Below, one piece after another: positions 1-7,579 of a DNA stretch of 29,099 nucleotides (position 1 is the stretch's first letter; every line of letters begins with the position of its first letter). Source of the DNA: Syntrophomonadaceae bacterium (GTDB lineage: Bacteria; Bacillota; Dethiobacteria; DTU022; UBA8154); assembly GCA_003561325.1 (NCBI GenBank), contig PWWY01000220.1, positions 1-29,099 of the forward strand, written 5' to 3'. A program made the position numbers and the translations under genes. The notes under the pieces were generated by a model. It made no database searches. It saw only the letters and a list, made by a program, of their open reading frames with translations, and was not told the DNA's origin.

Positions 1-1
1 G

Positions 2-1699
2 CCTTTCACCAAGCCGGCCCCCTGGGAACTGAAGCATACGGCTTCCACCTGTGGATATTGCGGGGTGGGATGCAGCATTAACATTGAAACGATCGGGGAT
101 ACGCTGGCCCGGGTTGTGCCCCTGGAAGGCCCGGTTAACCAGGGATTGCTCTGTAAAAGAGGGCGATTTGGATATGCTTACGTCAACAGCCCGGATCGAA
201 TTAAGAAACCCCTGATCCGGGAAAATGGGCAATTAAAGGAAACCTCCTGGGAAGATGCACTGGTGCATATTACCAAGAAGTTTAAGTCCCTGAAAGCCCG
301 TTTTGGAGGAGAAAGCCTGGCTGTATTTTCCAACCCCAGGTACACCAATGAAGAAAGCTACCTCATCCAGAAGTTCGCCCGGGCAACCCTGGGAACAAAC
401 AATATTAACAGTACGGCGGAAACGGCAACCCCCCTGGCAGAAATGTTCGGTTGGGATGCCTCGACCAATTCATATGAAGAGATCGGTACGGCGGACTTTA
501 TCCTGTCCGTGGGCGCTGACCTGCCTGATTATCCCATCGCCGGCTTGAAAATCAAGCAAGCCGTGGAAAAAGGGGCTACCTTGTGGACCGTTGACAGTCG
601 AGACGTGAAGTTAAAGCAGTACGCTTCCCGTTCTTTGAAGGTCGAGGAACAGGCTTCGGTTTCCCTGTTTGCCGCCCTGCTCCTTTATGCAAAACAAAAA
701 GAATTGGTAGACCAGGCCTTCGTGGAACAGTACACAGAGAATTTCGCCGACCTGGAGGCATGGCTTAGTAAGAAATCCATGGATGAGCTGCTTTCCGGCA
801 GCGGGGTATCGGAGCAAGATATTGCCGACCTGGTGGAGCGCTATGCCGCTGCCAAGACCCCCATCCTGGTCATGGGAAGCAACAACCTGGCCCCGGAGGC
901 GGTGCAGCTGTTGGCCGGCTTTGTGACCCTGCTTGGAAAAGTCGGAAAACCACGCCGCGGTATCATCTACCTGCGGGAGCGGTGCAACAGCCAGGGTATG
1001 CTGGATATGGGTGTTTCGACCCGTTATTTAACCGGTTACCAGCCGGTGGGCGATCCCGAGATCCGCAGCAAGTTCTCCAAGAAGTGGAAGGCGGAGGTTC
1101 CCCAGGCAGCAGGAAAAACCACGCAGCAGGTCCTGGAAGGCCTGGAAAACAAGACCATTAAAGGTGTGTTCGTTTTCGGTGAAGATATCGAGGAAGCCTG
1201 GATCGGCAAACTGGCCCAGGCTGAGCTGCTGGTCGTGCAGGATCTTTTCCTGACGGAGATTGCAAAAAAAGCCGATGTCGTCCTTCCCGCCGCTTCTTTT
1301 GCAGAAACTACGGGAAGCTATACCAACAGCGAGCGATTGATCCAAAAAGTTAATCCGGCGATAAAGCCCCTGACGAGTAAAGAGAACTGGGAAATACTCG
1401 TCAAACTGATGGAATACATGGGCTATAAACAAACAGCGAAATCCCTGCAAGATATTTGGGAAGAAATCCGCGCCCTGGCGCCTATCTTTAAAGGCACAAC
1501 CCTGGAGGTCCTGGATGAAGGCCACTTCTGGCCGGGAGGGCGGCCCATTTGTTCCGTCAATGATTTTGCACAAACGAAAGGTAAGATTCCCTTCAGCCCA
1601 CCGCTTAATCACGAAGCGGCATTCCTGGCAGGGAAATGGGCGGATAGCGTAGAAAAATGGTTCGTGCAGTATTTTGAGGAAAAAGGTCTTAAAGCATAA
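2..1699 (+). CDS. 5'-truncated molybdopterin-oxidoreductase-fold (FdhF/NuoG-like) Fe-S subunit lacking the Mo/W ligand; possible StnC/SfrA-type NAD(P)H oxidoreductase subunit
   Basis: The frame is open from base 2 (PFTKPAPWELKHTASTCGYCGVGC...). It has the CxxCxxxC...LCKRGRFG 4Fe-4S motif, plus LVVQDLFLTE and VVLPAASFAETTGSYTNSER motifs. The CARL(C/U)H site is replaced by GTNNINSTA, and the C-terminal dinucleotide-binding barrel appears absent. Confidence 0.8.
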   Translation, partial: PFTKPAPWELKHTASTCGYCGVGCSINIETIGDTLARVVPLEGPVNQGLLCKRGRFGYAYVNSPDRIKKPLIRENGQLKETSWEDALVHITKKFKSLKARFGGESLAVFSNPRYTNEESYLIQKFARATLGTNNINSTAETATPLAEMFGWDASTNSYEEIGTADFILSVGADLPDYPIAGLKIKQAVEKGATLWTVDSRDVKLKQYASRSLKVEEQASVSLFAALLLYAKQKELVDQAFVEQYTENFADLEAWLSKKSMDELLSGSGVSEQDIADLVERYAAAKTPILVMGSNNLAPEAVQLLAGFVTLLGKVGKPRRGIIYLRERCNSQGMLDMGVSTRYLTGYQPVGDPEIRSKFSKKWKAEVPQAAGKTTQQVLEGLENKTIKGVFVFGEDIEEAWIGKLAQAELLVVQDLFLTEIAKKADVVLPAASFAETTGSYTNSERLIQKVNPAIKPLTSKENWEILVKLMEYMGYKQTAKSLQDIWEEIRALAPIFKGTTLEVLDEGHFWPGGRPICSVNDFAQTKGKIPFSPPLNHEAAFLAGKWADSVEKWFVQYFEEKGLKA

Positions 1700-1728
1700 G
1701 GATACTAAAAAATCAAGGAGGTTAAACG

Positions 1729-2613
1729 ATGGCAGCAAAAGTTATTTCCGGAAAACAGGTCGCTGAAGAAATTAGGGGAGAACTAAAGCAAAAAGTCGCT
1801 GAACTGAAGGAAAAGGGGATTGTCCCCGGTCTGGGTGTGGTGCTGGTAGGTGAGGATCCCGCTTCGATTTCCTATGTCACCAGCAAGGCAAAGGGATGCT
1901 AAGAGATCGGGATGTACGAAGAAACCATCCGACTGCCGGCAGATGCGACAGAAGAAGAGGTATTGAAGACCGTTGATGGACTGAACAAGGACCCGAAAAT
2001 TAGCGGCATTCTCGTCCAACTTCCCTTACCGGACCACATCAGCGTTGACCGGGTTATCGGCTATATTTCACCGGAAAAAGATGTAGATGGATTCCACCCC
2101 GTTAACCTGGGCAAATTGCTGCGGGGAGAGCCCTGTCCCCTGCCCTGTACACCCCACGGTGTGAAGCAGCTCCTGGTCCGCTCCGGGAATGATCCCGCCG
2201 GAAAACACGTTGTTGTTTGCGGTCGCAGCAATATTGTCGGGAAGCCTTTAGCGGCCATTTTAATGCAAAAAGCAGAAGGCGCCAATGCCGTTGTCACCGT
2301 GGTTCACACCGGGGCCAAGGACATCAGCTATTATACCAAGCAAGCGGATATTTTAGTGGCTGCCATGGGACGTCCAAATGCGATTACGGCAGATATGGTG
2401 AACGAAGGCACGGTAGTGATTGACGTTGGCGTGAATCGTGTTCCAGATTCTTCGAAAAAAAGCGGTTTCCGCCTGGCTGGAGACGTCGATTATGAGCCTG
2501 TTGCAGAGAAAGCGTCATACATTACCCCGGTACCGGGTGGAGTGGGCCCGATGACCGTCACCATGCTGCTTTATAATACCGTTGAGGCAGCGATCTGGTT
2601 AAACCAGGGTTAG
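1729..2613 (+). pseudogene. folD: FolD paralog 1 (methylene-THF dehydrogenase/cyclohydrolase) interrupted by an in-frame TAA at 1900-1902
   Basis: SD AAGGAGG precedes ATG 1729. The frame reads MAAKVISGK...[20 protein letters not shown], the same frame as ORF 1912..2613. [27 protein letters not shown] and [11 protein letters not shown] are intact. Could be a real nonsense allele or a base-call error. Confidence 0.85.
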
Positions 2614-2625
2614 GAGGTAGACTGG

Positions 2626-3480
2626 ATGCCCGCCAACCTGATTAAAGGGGATGAAGTGGCAGAAAGCGTTCGCACAGAAATTGTGAAAGAGCTGGGCCGC
2701 ATCTATGATGAAACGGGCCTGGTCCCCGGTCTTGCCGTTGTATTGGTCGGGCAAAACCCTGCTTCCCTGTCGTATGTGATCAACAAGGAAAAACAGAGTA
2801 AGAAGTTGGGGTTCTATTCAGAAGTTCGGCGCTTGCCAGAGGATATCTCCCAGGATGACTTGCTTGAGGTGATAGAAGAACTCAACGAGGATGAAAAAAT
2901 CCACGGTTTCATGGTGCAGCTGCCCCTGCCTGAACACCTTGACGAGCGCGCCATCTTGACAGCGATTGATCCTGAAAAAGATATTGACGGCACACATCCC
3001 ATTAATATGGGCAAACTGTTTAGTGACGAAAAGGGCTTCATCGCCTGCACGGCACACAGTATTTTGCACATGATCGAACACACGAAGCAGCCGGTGTATG
3101 GAAAATCTGCCGTGCTGATTGGCCGAAGCAACATTGTGGGCAAGCCCCTGGCCTTGATCCTGCTGCGAAGAAATGCCTCCGTGACCCTATGCCATTCGAA
3201 AACGGTCGGCTTAGCGGACATTTGTCGCGAAGCGGATATCCTGGTCGCTGCTGCGGGCAGTACAGGGTTGGTCAAGGGCGACTGGGTCAAGCCTGGCGCC
3301 ATCGTAATCGACGTGGGTGTAACCCAGGTAGGAGACAGGCTCGTGGGCGACGTGGATTTTGACCAGGCGAAGGAAGTTGCGAGTTGGATATCACCCGTTC
3401 CAGGAGGCGTAGGGCCCATTACGATTACGATGTTGATGTGGAATGCGTTGGAAGCGTTTAAGTACAAGCTTGAAATCTGA
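2626..3480 (+). CDS. folD: FolD paralog 2, canonical motifs
   Basis: YVINK (YxxxK), [42 protein letters not shown] overlaps the upstream stop. Confidence 0.93.
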   Translation: MPANLIKGDEVAESVRTEIVKELGRIYDETGLVPGLAVVLVGQNPASLSYVINKEKQSKKLGFYSEVRRLPEDISQDDLLEVIEELNEDEKIHGFMVQLPLPEHLDERAILTAIDPEKDIDGTHPINMGKLFSDEKGFIACTAHSILHMIEHTKQPVYGKSAVLIGRSNIVGKPLALILLRRNASVTLCHSKTVGLADICREADILVAAAGSTGLVKGDWVKPGAIVIDVGVTQVGDRLVGDVDFDQAKEVASWISPVPGGVGPITITMLMWNALEAFKYKLEI

Positions 3481-3510
3481 ACGGGGATAAGACGGCTTTA
3501 TTGAAGAATA

Positions 3511-3582
3511 GGCATTTCAACCACGAAGAGGTCAGCTTTGGGGCCAGTGGATTACTCAGCTGGCCTCAAAGCTGGAAATGCC
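3511..3582 (+). other. Long intergenic stem-loop between folD2 and folD3
   Basis: 3533-3547 pairs with 3560-3574 (15 bp, one G-U). 3511-3518 GGCATTTC pairs with 3575-3582 GAAATGCC. 12-nt loop and 14-nt bulge. Confidence 0.7.
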
Positions 3583-3597
3583 GCTAGGGGGTCAAAC

Positions 3598-4440
3598 ATG
3601 GCCGCAAAAATTATTGATGGAGAACAGGCTGCAGTCGAGGTCAAGGAAAAGATCAAGCAAGATATTCAGTCTTTAAGTTCAGAAAAAGGCATTACACCTG
3701 GATTGGCGATCCTCGTTGTGAAAAGTCCTGTCGGCCGGGTCCACATTGCACAATTGAAAGAACGGACATGCCGACAGCTAGGGATCAAGTGCCGGGTCTT
3801 TAACCTGCCCGAAACCACAACGGATGAAGAAATTATCCACCTGATTGAACGACTCAACGATGCCGATCCTGTCCACGGGATTAACATTCACCCTCTACCA
3901 CCTCACCTGGACCACACCCTGATCTCGCAAATCGTAGAACCCCGCAAAGATGTCGAAGGGCTGCATTTTTTAAATATGGGAGATTTTTTAATCGGGGAGC
4001 ACCATATGCCGCCTTTCGTGGCCAAGGGGATTGTTAAGCTGATTGATTCAACCGGTGAAAAGATTGAAGGCAAAAGGGCTGTTGTTGTCGGACGCAGCCA
4101 GCTTGTTGGAAAACCGATAGCTTTCATGCTGCTGGAAAGAAATGCAACTGTCAGTATCGTTCATTCCCAGACCCCGGATCTTTCCGCTTTCACGGAGCAC
4201 GCGGATATCCTGGTAGTTGCCGTGGGGCACCCCTATACCATCACGGGGGAGATGGTGAAAGAGGGCGCAATCGTGATCGATGTTGGCCTAACCCAGGTTG
4301 GAACCCGCCTGGTGGGCGATGTCGACCACGCCGAAGTGCAGGAAAAGGCCAGCTGGATTACCCCGATCACGGGTGGCGTTGGCCCCGTGACCATCGCGAT
4401 GCTGCTGGACAACCTGGTCGAGGCCTGTAAGCTGTTATGA
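3598..4440 (+). CDS. folD: FolD paralog 3, divergent (altered cyclohydrolase residues)
   Basis: FolD fold motifs GRSQLVGKP, VIDVG, LVGDVD and GGVGPVT are present. The start is more likely ATG 3598 (SD AGGGGG, MAAKIIDG) than 3538. YxxxK, QLPLP, KDVDG and PCTP are altered. Confidence 0.85.
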   Translation: MAAKIIDGEQAAVEVKEKIKQDIQSLSSEKGITPGLAILVVKSPVGRVHIAQLKERTCRQLGIKCRVFNLPETTTDEEIIHLIERLNDADPVHGINIHPLPPHLDHTLISQIVEPRKDVEGLHFLNMGDFLIGEHHMPPFVAKGIVKLIDSTGEKIEGKRAVVVGRSQLVGKPIAFMLLERNATVSIVHSQTPDLSAFTEHADILVVAVGHPYTITGEMVKEGAIVIDVGLTQVGTRLVGDVDHAEVQEKASWITPITGGVGPVTIAMLLDNLVEACKLL

Positions 4441-5654
4441 AAAAGGATCTCATTTACCGTGTATCCCAGGTTAACCGCTACCTGAAACAGCTATTATTCC
4501 AAGATACCCTTTTACAGGATATCCAGGTCCTGGGTGAAATATCGAATTTCAAACATCATAAGCCCTCGGGACACATGTATTTTACGCTAAAAGAAGAAGA
4601 TCAAATCTTGCGTGCCGTTTTTTTTAAACACAAGAACCAGCACCTTACTTTTTTACCGGCCGAGGGGATGAGCGTGATCGCCCGGGGCAGCACCTCGATC
4701 TATGAACGCAGCGGGTATTTTCAACTGTATGTCGAGGAACTGGAACCTGAAGGACAGGGGGCGCTCTACCAGGCCTTTGAACAACTCAAAGAAAAACTAC
4801 AAGAACAAGGGCTTTTTGATGCGGCGCACAAAAAGCCCTTGCCCTATATTCCAAGGAAGGTTGGAGTGATCACTTCCCCCGGTGGCGCAGCGATTCGAGA
4901 TTTTATGACTACCCTGCAGCGGAGATTTCCCCTGGTCCAGCTGACCATCTTTCCTGTGGCCGTGCAGGGAAAAGAGTCTGCCGCACAAATCGTTAAGGCC
5001 CTGGAGACGATGGACCGGCGGAGGGAGTTTGATGTGCTGGTCCTCACCCGCGGCGGCGGTTCCCTGGAAGAGCTGTGGTCTTTTAATGACGAAGGCGTCG
5101 CCCGGGCCATTTTTCAAGCGAAAACTCCCGTGATTTCAGCTGTCGGGCACGAAACGGATTTCACCATCGCAGATTTTGTTGCCGACTACAGGGCTTCAAC
5201 ACCTACTGCAGCGGCGGAGCTCCTTGCCCCTGATAAAAACGAGCTGGAAAAACAGCTCCAGGTGATGAGCGTTCGCCTGGAAACCGCAATGAAGAACAGC
5301 CTCGCAGGCCGGCTGCATTTGCTGAAGCACCTTTCCAGCGCCAGGTTCCAGCGGTATTTGCGCGATAAGATCAATTACCACCTGCAGAGAATCGATGAGC
5401 TGTGGTCGAGGATGACGCGGAGCATCAAGCACGATTTACAGATCAAGCGCGCCACGGTAAAAAACCTGGAAGATCGCCTGCAGGCGTTGGATCCTACACG
5501 GGTTTTGGGGCGGGGATTTACCCTGGTCGTGGATGAAAATCAACAGCTGATCAAGCGCATCGGGCAGATAAAGGAAAATTGTGAGGTAGAAATTATTTTT
5601 GTCGATGGACGGGCTCGCTGCCTGGTCAAAGGAACCCAAAAAACAGGGGAGTAG
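4437..5654 (+). CDS. xseA: Exodeoxyribonuclease VII large subunit
   Basis: GEISNFK..SGHMYFTLK, VITSPGGAAIRD, RGGGSLEELWSFN, SAVGHETDFTIADFVAD...TPTAAAE. ATGA overlap with the folD3 stop. Confidence 0.96.
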   Translation: MKKDLIYRVSQVNRYLKQLLFQDTLLQDIQVLGEISNFKHHKPSGHMYFTLKEEDQILRAVFFKHKNQHLTFLPAEGMSVIARGSTSIYERSGYFQLYVEELEPEGQGALYQAFEQLKEKLQEQGLFDAAHKKPLPYIPRKVGVITSPGGAAIRDFMTTLQRRFPLVQLTIFPVAVQGKESAAQIVKALETMDRRREFDVLVLTRGGGSLEELWSFNDEGVARAIFQAKTPVISAVGHETDFTIADFVADYRASTPTAAAELLAPDKNELEKQLQVMSVRLETAMKNSLAGRLHLLKHLSSARFQRYLRDKINYHLQRIDELWSRMTRSIKHDLQIKRATVKNLEDRLQALDPTRVLGRGFTLVVDENQQLIKRIGQIKENCEVEIIFVDGRARCLVKGTQKTGE

Positions 5655-6942: not shown

Positions 6943-6971
6943 TTGAGATAAAGAAAGCAGTGTGCTATAAT
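6943..6971 (+). promoter_or_regulatory. SigmaA-type promoter for the OLE RNA
   Basis: TTGAGA (6943-6948), 17-bp spacer, TATAAT (6966-6971) with extended TG at 6963-6964. Predicted start ~6977-6979, just before the OLE 5' strand. Confidence 0.8.
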
Positions 6972-6983
6972 TGAATTGGGACA

Positions 6984-7547
6984 TAGGTGGTGCAGTATTC
7001 TAGTTAGGCAAACGCTTCTGAAGGCGGGCCTAAAAATCCGCCAAAGGGCACATCGATGAAGTTCCTGGTGCCGGCTGCCGAAGCCCAGTCGGGGGTTGGT
7101 GCTGGGAGTTAAGGAGGATGGGGCGATCTACAAAGGCATGTAGGCGTTGACCCTACCTCCGTGGAGACCTAAGTTCGTGGTTAATTGCCTTACTGGGAAA
7201 GCGCTACGGCTTAGGCTAGAACCTGTGTGCGGCAGACGCTGGGCACAGTGTAGCCTGCCTTGAGTGGTTCTGCGGGGAGAAAGGCAGCGTGCTGTCTTAG
7301 GAAACCAGGACTGCAAAAGAGGCTAGGAAGCGTAAATGCACTATCGAGGAAAACTCCTAGACTGTTCCCACCTTCGGGAGATCTTGCGGGGATTAAAGTG
7401 CGGTCTTAGTGGCAATCCAGCCCTGCCGGTGGCAACACGGCAGAGATGCCTTTAAAAGGAAACTGCCCTCTGGCAACAGCGTGGCAGGCATCTGGGAAAA
7501 CCTGCTGGACCTGAAGCCGTAAAGTTTACCCGCATGATTGCCACCTA
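6984..7547 (+). ncRNA. ole: OLE (ornate, large, extremophilic) RNA
   Basis: Recognisable conserved OLE segments: GGTGCAGTATTCTAGT, CTAAAAATCCGC-AAAGGGCACATCGATGAAGTTCCTGGTGC, GCAGTGTAGCCTGCCTTGAGTGG-like, GAGGAAAACTCCTAGACTG, TTAGTGGCAAT and GTGGCAACAC. Closing stem TAGGTGG(6984-6990)/CCACCTA(7541-7547). GCAA and UUCG tetraloop hairpins. Canonical position between ispA and oapA-dxs-tlyA-nadK-recN. Confidence 0.93.
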
Positions 7548-7579
7548 GGTCCTTTATCAATAATGAGGTGTTTGAGGTT

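Follow-up and report, generated by a model that had tools for sequence, protein, structure and literature searches.

Why would a bacterium keep three consecutive genes for FolD—the bifunctional methylene-tetrahydrofolate (methylene-THF) dehydrogenase/methenyl-THF cyclohydrolase—directly behind a gene that resembles formate dehydrogenase (FDH)? This question is raised by a 29,099-nucleotide stretch of DNA assigned to a Syntrophomonadaceae bacterium (GenBank assembly GCA_003561325.1, contig PWWY01000220.1), in which an FDH-like gene, truncated by the contig end, is followed on the same strand by folD1, folD2, folD3 and xseA. The window—this whole stretch—is the entire contig C39 of a metagenome-assembled genome (MAG; G000), the assembly of which is in fragments (1.22 Mb in 239 contigs) and ~80% complete. 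We examined the locus among 33 genomes of its family, which were surveyed for folD types and their neighbours and are referred to here as the family genomes. Our reading, to which we assign a probability of about 0.7, is that these genes form a conserved operon end in which an NADP-linked FolD1 is coupled to a Stn-type transhydrogenase, FolD2 is the resident enzyme, FolD3 has been rebuilt around its substrate pocket, and an in-frame TAA codon in folD1 is most likely an assembly error.

The first gene of the window encodes the last 565 residues of a StnC protein of ~1241 residues, its 5′ side being truncated by the contig end; the product is ~88% identical to residues 677–1241 of the 1241-residue orthologue in the sister-species MAG G001. 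The full-length G001 protein carries the domains Fer2_4, Fer4_20, Pyr_redox_2 (a GltD-like FAD/NADPH module), Fer4_Nqo3, Molybdop_Fe4S4 and Molybdopterin, and scores 1046 bits against StnC of Sporomusa ovata (8oh5_C) and 1090 bits against 9bov_A. Directly before stnC, the G001 genome encodes a 592-residue protein with Complex1_51K and NADH_4Fe-4S domains (a NuoF-like StnB) and a 182-residue 2Fe-2S_thioredx protein (a NuoE-like StnA); upstream of stnA, relatives carry a TsaD-family gene and then nusB. In S. ovata, Stn was purified as a ferredoxin-dependent NADH:NADP+ electron-bifurcating transhydrogenase (PMC7483475), and its solved structure contains an FdhF-like domain reported to be inactive (PMC10482914). 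The flavin-based reaction is NADH + reduced ferredoxin + 2 NADP+ <-> NAD+ + oxidised ferredoxin + 2 NADPH (PMC7483475, PMC10482914). The relatives examined here have the same set of a NuoE-like subunit, a NuoF-like subunit and a fusion protein of ~1240 residues as StnABC of S. ovata (PDB 8OH5/8OH9) and the 9BOV complex, and the likeness to S. ovata StnC extends to the fusion of 2Fe-2S, GltD-like and NuoG/FdhF-like parts, with no Mo ligand and no C-terminal cap. The two systems differ in genomic setting—the S. ovata stn genes come after metVF in a Wood-Ljungdahl cluster (PMC7483475), whereas here they lie between nusB and the three folD genes—and the window itself contains only the C-terminal 565 residues of StnC.

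A genuine FDH upstream of folD1 was ruled out on two counts: alignment of the window protein to FdhF of the hydrogen-dependent CO2 reductase (HDCR) revealed a 5-residue deletion that removes the Cys/Sec-His ligand motif for molybdenum or tungsten, and the C-terminal Molydop_binding domain was absent from this open reading frame (ORF) in the Pfam search. The upstream gene thus encodes the catalytically dead, FdhF-like/NuoG-like C-terminal domain of StnC, the NADP(H)-binding subunit. The initial annotation, made from the window alone, had described a ligand-less pseudo-FDH oxidoreductase; it was right about the missing ligand, although the sequence in question belongs to StnC as one of its domains rather than forming a gene of its own. 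Identity of StnC to the sister species is 97.7% over residues 1–707 versus 87.8% over residues 677–1241, a difference suggesting that the inactive domain is much less constrained than the rest. The missing part of the operon was located on a second contig of the same genome. Contig C151 (3852 bases), read as its reverse complement, finishes with 95 bases identical to window positions 1–95, and it carries stnB together with the coding sequence for StnC residues 1–707. Contigs C151 and C39 therefore join, and the operon is present in this genome but split by an assembly break; stnA was not found in the genome, contig C151 ending before it.

The position immediately before folD1 is not always occupied by Stn. 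In genera g10 and g4 and in GCA_900198705 (on a 3.3-Mb contig), NfnA-like and NfnB-like genes lie directly upstream of folD1 in place of stnABC, giving the order nusB-nfnA-nfnB-folD1. NfnAB catalyses the same overall reaction as Stn from the same position, but its subunit architecture differs, and no copy turned up in the assembled region. The occupation of one slot by two bifurcating transhydrogenases that are unrelated yet both linked to NADP(H) is the strongest evidence in this study for a functional neighbourhood, and gene order of this kind points to a coupling of the transhydrogenase to FolD. The earlier proposal that the upstream enzyme balances NADPH fits this picture, the gene being part of an NADH/ferredoxin/NADP+ transhydrogenase with NfnAB in the same spot in sister genera. 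Moreover, in sister families of the order (loci L093 and L095), a single folD-xseA is preceded by a GltD-like gene and a separate gene for a 767-residue NuoG/FDH-like protein (an SfrAB-like pair); the association of folD with redox enzymes of the GltD/NuoG type therefore predates the family.

The cassette recurs widely. The order stnC-folD1-folD2-folD3-xseA was found in five genomes examined closely (G001, G003, G005, G008 and G014), which add four further genera, and a tandem folD triple is present in 13–14 of the 33 family genomes, across seven genera. A mis-assembly or a one-off arrangement, either of which would have undone the initial proposal, is ruled out by the same order in so many genera, a recurrence well past anything that chance would produce. 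FolD1 orthologues (at least 84% identity) occur in 21 of the family genomes and FolD3 orthologues (at least 57%) in 25. Other arrangements within the family include stnC-folD2-folD3, nfnAB-folD1-folD3, stnC-folD1 alone and nusB-folD2-folD3; the folD3 gene always stands directly after another folD gene. As a separate observation, genome G012 has stnC-folD1-xseA without folD2 and folD3, and a second FolD1-like gene in that genome (L032, contig C111, 1031–3743), 64% identical to FolD1 at the protein level, adjoins fhs, the gene for formyl-THF synthetase.

The three FolDs are distant from one another. Pairwise identities are 40–47%, both FolD Pfam domains are present in each, and the motifs quoted in the initial annotation (QKAEGA...VVHTG in FolD1, CHSKT in FolD2 and altered motifs in FolD3) were all recovered, so that its description of three clearly diverged genes holds. 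The matches to THF_DHG_CYH and THF_DHG_CYH_C lie well over the Pfam curated cut-offs in all three ORFs; none of the three reached the NCBIfam FolD equivalog cut-off. In a maximum-likelihood tree, FolD1, FolD2 and FolD3 each formed their own clade with a support of 100. FolD2 falls among the lone FolDs of the order's sister families (support 99.8–100), and it is therefore taken to be the vertically inherited copy. FolD1 clusters with a Dehalococcoidia sequence and with a FolD from G012 whose gene is linked to fhs. The FolD3 clade, confined to the family, sits on a stem of length 0.99, and the next-best database matches to FolD3 are ordinary FolDs at ~50% identity. When FolD3 was constrained to group with FolD2 and the order's FolD, the likelihood was slightly better than that of the free search. 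One exclusive clade of all three paralogs was rejected in the approximately unbiased (AU) test (p=0.0015); FolD2+FolD3 (p=0.27) and FolD1+FolD3 (p=0.12) were not. The phylogeny envisaged in the initial annotation thus speaks against a tandem triplication within the family, and a recent one is ruled out by the 40–47% identity and the family-wide clades in addition to the AU result.

Each copy is also under selection. The ratios of nonsynonymous to synonymous substitution rates (dN/dS) against the sister species are 0.010 for folD1, 0.056 for folD2, 0.054 for folD3 and 0.14 for xseA, with dS between 0.44 and 0.67 for all four genes. Across genera, FolD1 proteins are 84–99% identical; because the dS of folD1 (0.44) is similar to that of its neighbours, this extreme conservation is a mark of constraint rather than of recent transfer, and recent horizontal spread was discarded as its explanation. 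The three FolDs are hence old, non-equivalent paralogs, each under purifying selection. The slot next to xseA, which in outgroups is taken by their only folD, is occupied here by folD3, with the ATGA overlap conserved. This position bears on the same history, the simplest version of which has two steps: the resident folD was duplicated in tandem long ago and its downstream copy diverged; folD1 then arrived separately, together with a transhydrogenase.

In folD1, the initial annotation overlooked an in-frame TAA at codon 58, owing to which the ORF finder lists the gene only as 1912..2613. In all 11 orthologues, this codon is GAA, GAG or CAG, with GAA in the sister species. In a sediment metagenome (run X1, ~5.7x depth), 95% of the words sampled from the window are present, and a Logan contig of 1187 bases from this run spans positions 1705–2891 with a sole mismatch to the window—G instead of T at position 1900. 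Because the X1 contig reads GAA, the orthologues carry a sense codon and folD1 shows a dN/dS of 0.01, the TAA is most likely an error in a consensus built at low coverage, or else a variant present in few cells. The deposited MAG sequence does read TAA, and, were it real, folD1 would be a true pseudogene here and only FolD2 and FolD3 would work. We consider this highly improbable: the rest of FolD1 is 99% identical to the sister-species protein, the independent contig differs nowhere else (though at a depth of only ~5.7x), and an FchA-linked substitute FolD of the kind described below was not found in the genome.

We next turned to the active sites, using the key residues (human numbering) Tyr52, Lys56, Gln100, Leu101, Asp125, Gly273 and Gly276 and the NADP triad Arg173, His196 and Ser197 (PMC3368264), the roles of which have been defined for the human and Leishmania enzymes (PMC3368264). 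Relative to canonical FolD and human MTHFD1 DC301 (PDB 1B0A, 1A4I, 3L07, 3P2O), FolD1 and the FolD2 of this genome keep Tyr52, Lys56, Gln100, Leu101 and Asp125. In FolD1, these five residues, the PCTP loop and GGVG are kept in 14/14 orthologues; it differs from the canonical enzymes by a Thr at the Ser197-equivalent position (an R-H-T triad) and by a 4-residue insertion before the VVHTG cofactor-triad motif, spanned by the QKAEGA stretch.

These two features, set beside the canonical R-H-S of FolD2 and FolD3, could be taken to mean that the three proteins are isoenzymes differing mainly in cofactor (NAD versus NADP) or direction, with the transhydrogenase link being incidental; among acetogens, some methylene-THF dehydrogenases use NAD and others NADP (PMC7483475). 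We regard this as unlikely, since the appearance of the unrelated Stn and NfnAB in the same slot before folD1 is hard to explain by chance, and FolD3 differs mainly in its folate pocket and not in its cofactor site. A further pattern in the family concerns FolD1. A divergent FolD, here called type X, lies directly after an fchA (FTCD_C) gene in 10 of the 33 family genomes; it lacks Gln100, shows a Tyr-x4-Lys spacing, is 33–38% identical to the window's FolDs and is absent from the window genome. FolD1 (21 genomes) and type X (10 genomes) never co-occur among the 33, and this mutual exclusion leads us to infer that FolD1 is the catabolic enzyme where present. Type X pairs resemble the fchA + folD pairs of acetogens, in which cyclohydrolase and dehydrogenase are split, and their Tyr-x4-Lys spacing parallels a His-x4-Lys in FolD3. 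In genome G007 (contig C45, L103 2571–4138), the fchA and type X pair adjoins pyruvate:ferredoxin oxidoreductase genes.

FolD2 has fared differently from one lineage to another. In the window genome, it retains the five substrate-site residues listed above, GGVG and an R-H-S triad. Elsewhere (FolD2 orthologues at L020–L028, L039 and L042), Cys, Ile or Ala stands in place of the catalytic Lys56 in 6 of the 16 genomes compared, and Asp125 is lost in some genera; in genus g10, Asp125, the cofactor residue His196 and the GGVG motif are gone as well. Despite these losses, FolD2 is retained across genera at a dN/dS of 0.06–0.19, a pattern which suggests that the protein is sliding toward a non-catalytic role outside this genus.

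FolD3, in turn, has changed throughout its clade. In 18/18 members, Tyr52 is lost (His or Val), one residue is added before Lys56, Gln100 is replaced by His, Leu101 is deleted, Asp125 has become Glu and PCTP reads PFVA; GG-x-G is kept, and so is the Lys, shifted by one residue. Compared with canonical FolD, four of the seven key substrate residues and the PCTP loop are thus altered. The cofactor triad is R-H-S in 16/18 members and R-H-T in 2/18. An AlphaFold (AF2) model of FolD3 reached a pLDDT of 94.1 and a pTM of 0.91, and Foldseek superimposed it on 3L07, 3P2O, 1A4I, 6V6Y and 5O2A with TM scores of 0.90–0.96; given this confident model and the close superposition on solved FolDs, FolD3 is a folded and constrained protein that is not decaying. 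As its key residues depart from those of a canonical bifunctional FolD, we class it as a FolD-fold paralog. A useful comparison is offered by the Q98H variant of E. coli FolD (PDB 5O2A), which retains ~8% of dehydrogenase and ~1% of cyclohydrolase activity and binds carolacton poorly (PMC5688156). FolD3 has the equivalent Gln-to-His exchange, and its helix alpha2, a region to which further carolacton-resistance mutations have been mapped (PMC5688156), is altered as well; Q98H, however, is a single laboratory mutation, whereas the FolD3 pocket is naturally conserved with several further changes. By analogy with Q98H, and with type X—which lacks Gln100, has the same x4 spacing and stands behind FchA—FolD3 most likely keeps some dehydrogenase but little cyclohydrolase activity.

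What, then, would FolD3 be for? One tentative possibility, short of probable, is that FolD3, possibly together with the decaying FolD2, has been neofunctionalised, either as a dehydrogenase-only enzyme with an altered substrate or one-carbon (C1) carrier or as a form insensitive to folate-site inhibitors, given that its Gln-to-His exchange is the one that renders E. coli FolD resistant to carolacton. FolD enzymes are dimers, and FolD2 and/or FolD3 might alternatively be non-catalytic or serve as partner subunits, e.g., in a FolD2-FolD3 or FolD1-FolD3 heterodimer. That folD3 is never found except directly behind another folD would suit such a role, as would the loss of FolD2 Lys56 in over a third of the genomes compared (and of more motifs in g10) under continued constraint; but genus g4 and GCA_900198705 keep FolD3 without FolD2, and we judge the partner-subunit explanation distinctly improbable, even more so than that of cofactor isoenzymes.

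The wider genome is consistent with a C1 function. Contig C103 carries both acsB and metF, and contig C56 the glycine-cleavage P-protein genes; syntrophic acetate oxidation has been described for soda-lake relatives (PMC6295475). Sequence evidence of this kind supports a Wood-Ljungdahl setting, in which flux may be oxidative or reductive. Neither the MAG nor the sister G001 (80% and 90% complete) yielded a match to formyl-THF synthetase (fhs, PF01268), a gene present in 29 of the 33 family genomes. The specialised C1 module guessed at in the initial annotation is favoured by the encoded acsB, metF and glycine cleavage and by lineages related to syntrophic acetate oxidisers; set against it is the failure to find fhs. 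The runs containing the window sequence are soda-lake and salt-lake metagenomes; the sister-species MAG, also named 'Syntrophomonadaceae bacterium', comes from Cock Soda Lake, and further relatives are labelled Dethiobacter. The host is accordingly a soda-lake anaerobe of the Dethiobacter/'Candidatus (Ca.) Syntrophonatronum' group that carries the Wood-Ljungdahl pathway.

Taken together, we propose an operon of the order nusB-(TsaD-family gene)-stnA-stnB-stnC-folD1-folD2-folD3-xseA. FolD1 would be the catabolic methylene-THF dehydrogenase/methenyl-THF cyclohydrolase of the Wood-Ljungdahl pathway, using NADP(H), and the upstream transhydrogenase—Stn here, NfnAB in sister genera—would link this NADP(H) with the pools of NAD(H) and ferredoxin; such coupling might work in favour of acetyl-CoA oxidation or of CO2 reduction. 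FolD2 would act as the resident housekeeping FolD, and FolD3 would be an old duplicate of the resident lineage that binds NADP(H) within a FolD fold whose folate pocket has been rebuilt.

Several observations weigh against this proposal. No fhs match was obtained in the genus, which may reflect incompleteness or a methyl branch wired in another way. Owing to its long stem, FolD3 is placed in the tree with little confidence, and neither of the two pairwise groupings is rejected. FolD1, predicted to use NADP(H), carries Thr where the canonical triad has Ser197. The 'housekeeping' label does not explain why FolD2 is retained in many genera after loss of its catalytic Lys or Asp. Membership in one operon is suggested by short gaps and the lack of predicted terminators: in a promoter/terminator scan of the region, terminator-like matches were not above chance, and the nine promoter-like sites (4.3±2.2 expected) included no usable one inside the cluster. 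Finally, a metatranscriptome (run X18) gave two short contigs for stnC and no coverage of folD.

The features of the locus are listed in Table 1. The claimed 29-bp gap and strong Shine-Dalgarno sequence before the first folD were verified (AGGAGG, upstream of the ATG at 1729). For folD3, a start at TTG 3538 was dropped in favour of the ATG, which has an AGGGGG Shine-Dalgarno sequence upstream and gives a protein that fits orthologue lengths better. The ATG of xseA overlaps the folD3 stop codon (ATGA), as it does in relatives, and this gene marks the ancestral nusB-folD-xseA backbone. Further downstream, the window contains a full-length OLE (ornate large extremophilic) RNA at 6971–7560 on the plus strand (Rfam RF01071, 487.8 bits, the cut-off being 50). 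Its neighbours are ispA on one side and the next membrane-protein gene on the other, and a promoter close to consensus stands before it at 6943–6971.

Table 1. Features at the start of the window (contig C39), with the evidence for each.
Feature	Position	Strand	Evidence or remark
stnC, 3′ part	2..1699	+	5′-open at contig end; Pfam Molybdop_Fe4S4 and Molybdopterin
folD1	1729..2613	+	Pfam FolD domains, 141 + 213 bits
In-frame TAA, folD1 codon 58 as assembled	1900..1902	+	ORF list and orthologue comparison
folD2	2626..3480	+	Pfam FolD domains, 136 + 216 bits
folD3 (280 residues)	3598..4440	+	Pfam FolD domains, 85 + 200 bits
xseA (exonuclease VII large subunit)	4437..5654	+	Pfam Exonuc_VII_L, 327 bits

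Parts of this arrangement have surfaced in the literature before. The initial annotation had no earlier description of the triple to cite; the paper on 'Ca. Contubernalis alkaliaceticus' lists three adjacent FolD-type genes (HUE98_10805 to 10815), and does so uncommented (PMC10608574). Proteomes of D. alkaliphilus contain two FolD-annotated proteins with consecutive accessions and a GltD-like protein, all highly abundant (PMC10376724 supplements); the masses of the two FolD proteins are 30.1 and 30.3 kDa, against 31.1, 30.9 and 30.4 kDa for FolD1, FolD2 and FolD3 here. Our literature search found no dedicated analysis of multiple FolD paralogs or of the Stn/Nfn-folD linkage, nor a dedicated study of the FolD3 subfamily. 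The redox gene adds a member to an enzyme family that is already known and structurally solved, FolD1 and FolD2 are FolDs, and FolD3 is an uncharacterised FolD-fold variant. New are the probable artefact behind the TAA, the joining of C39 to C151, the finding that FolD1 and type X exclude each other, the lineage-wise decay of FolD2 and the parallel between FolD3 and Q98H.

For the biology of the family, the sharing of one slot by Stn and Nfn before an ultra-conserved FolD provides genomic evidence that the methylene-THF dehydrogenase step is the main partner of these transhydrogenases in this lineage. The cassette also presents a natural series of FolD states—intact, decaying and rebuilt—and the activity of FolD3 would show what the FolD fold does with a different pocket. 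Should FolD3 indeed have been neofunctionalised, it would give the family a second, separately controlled C1 route beside the Stn/Nfn-coupled FolD1.

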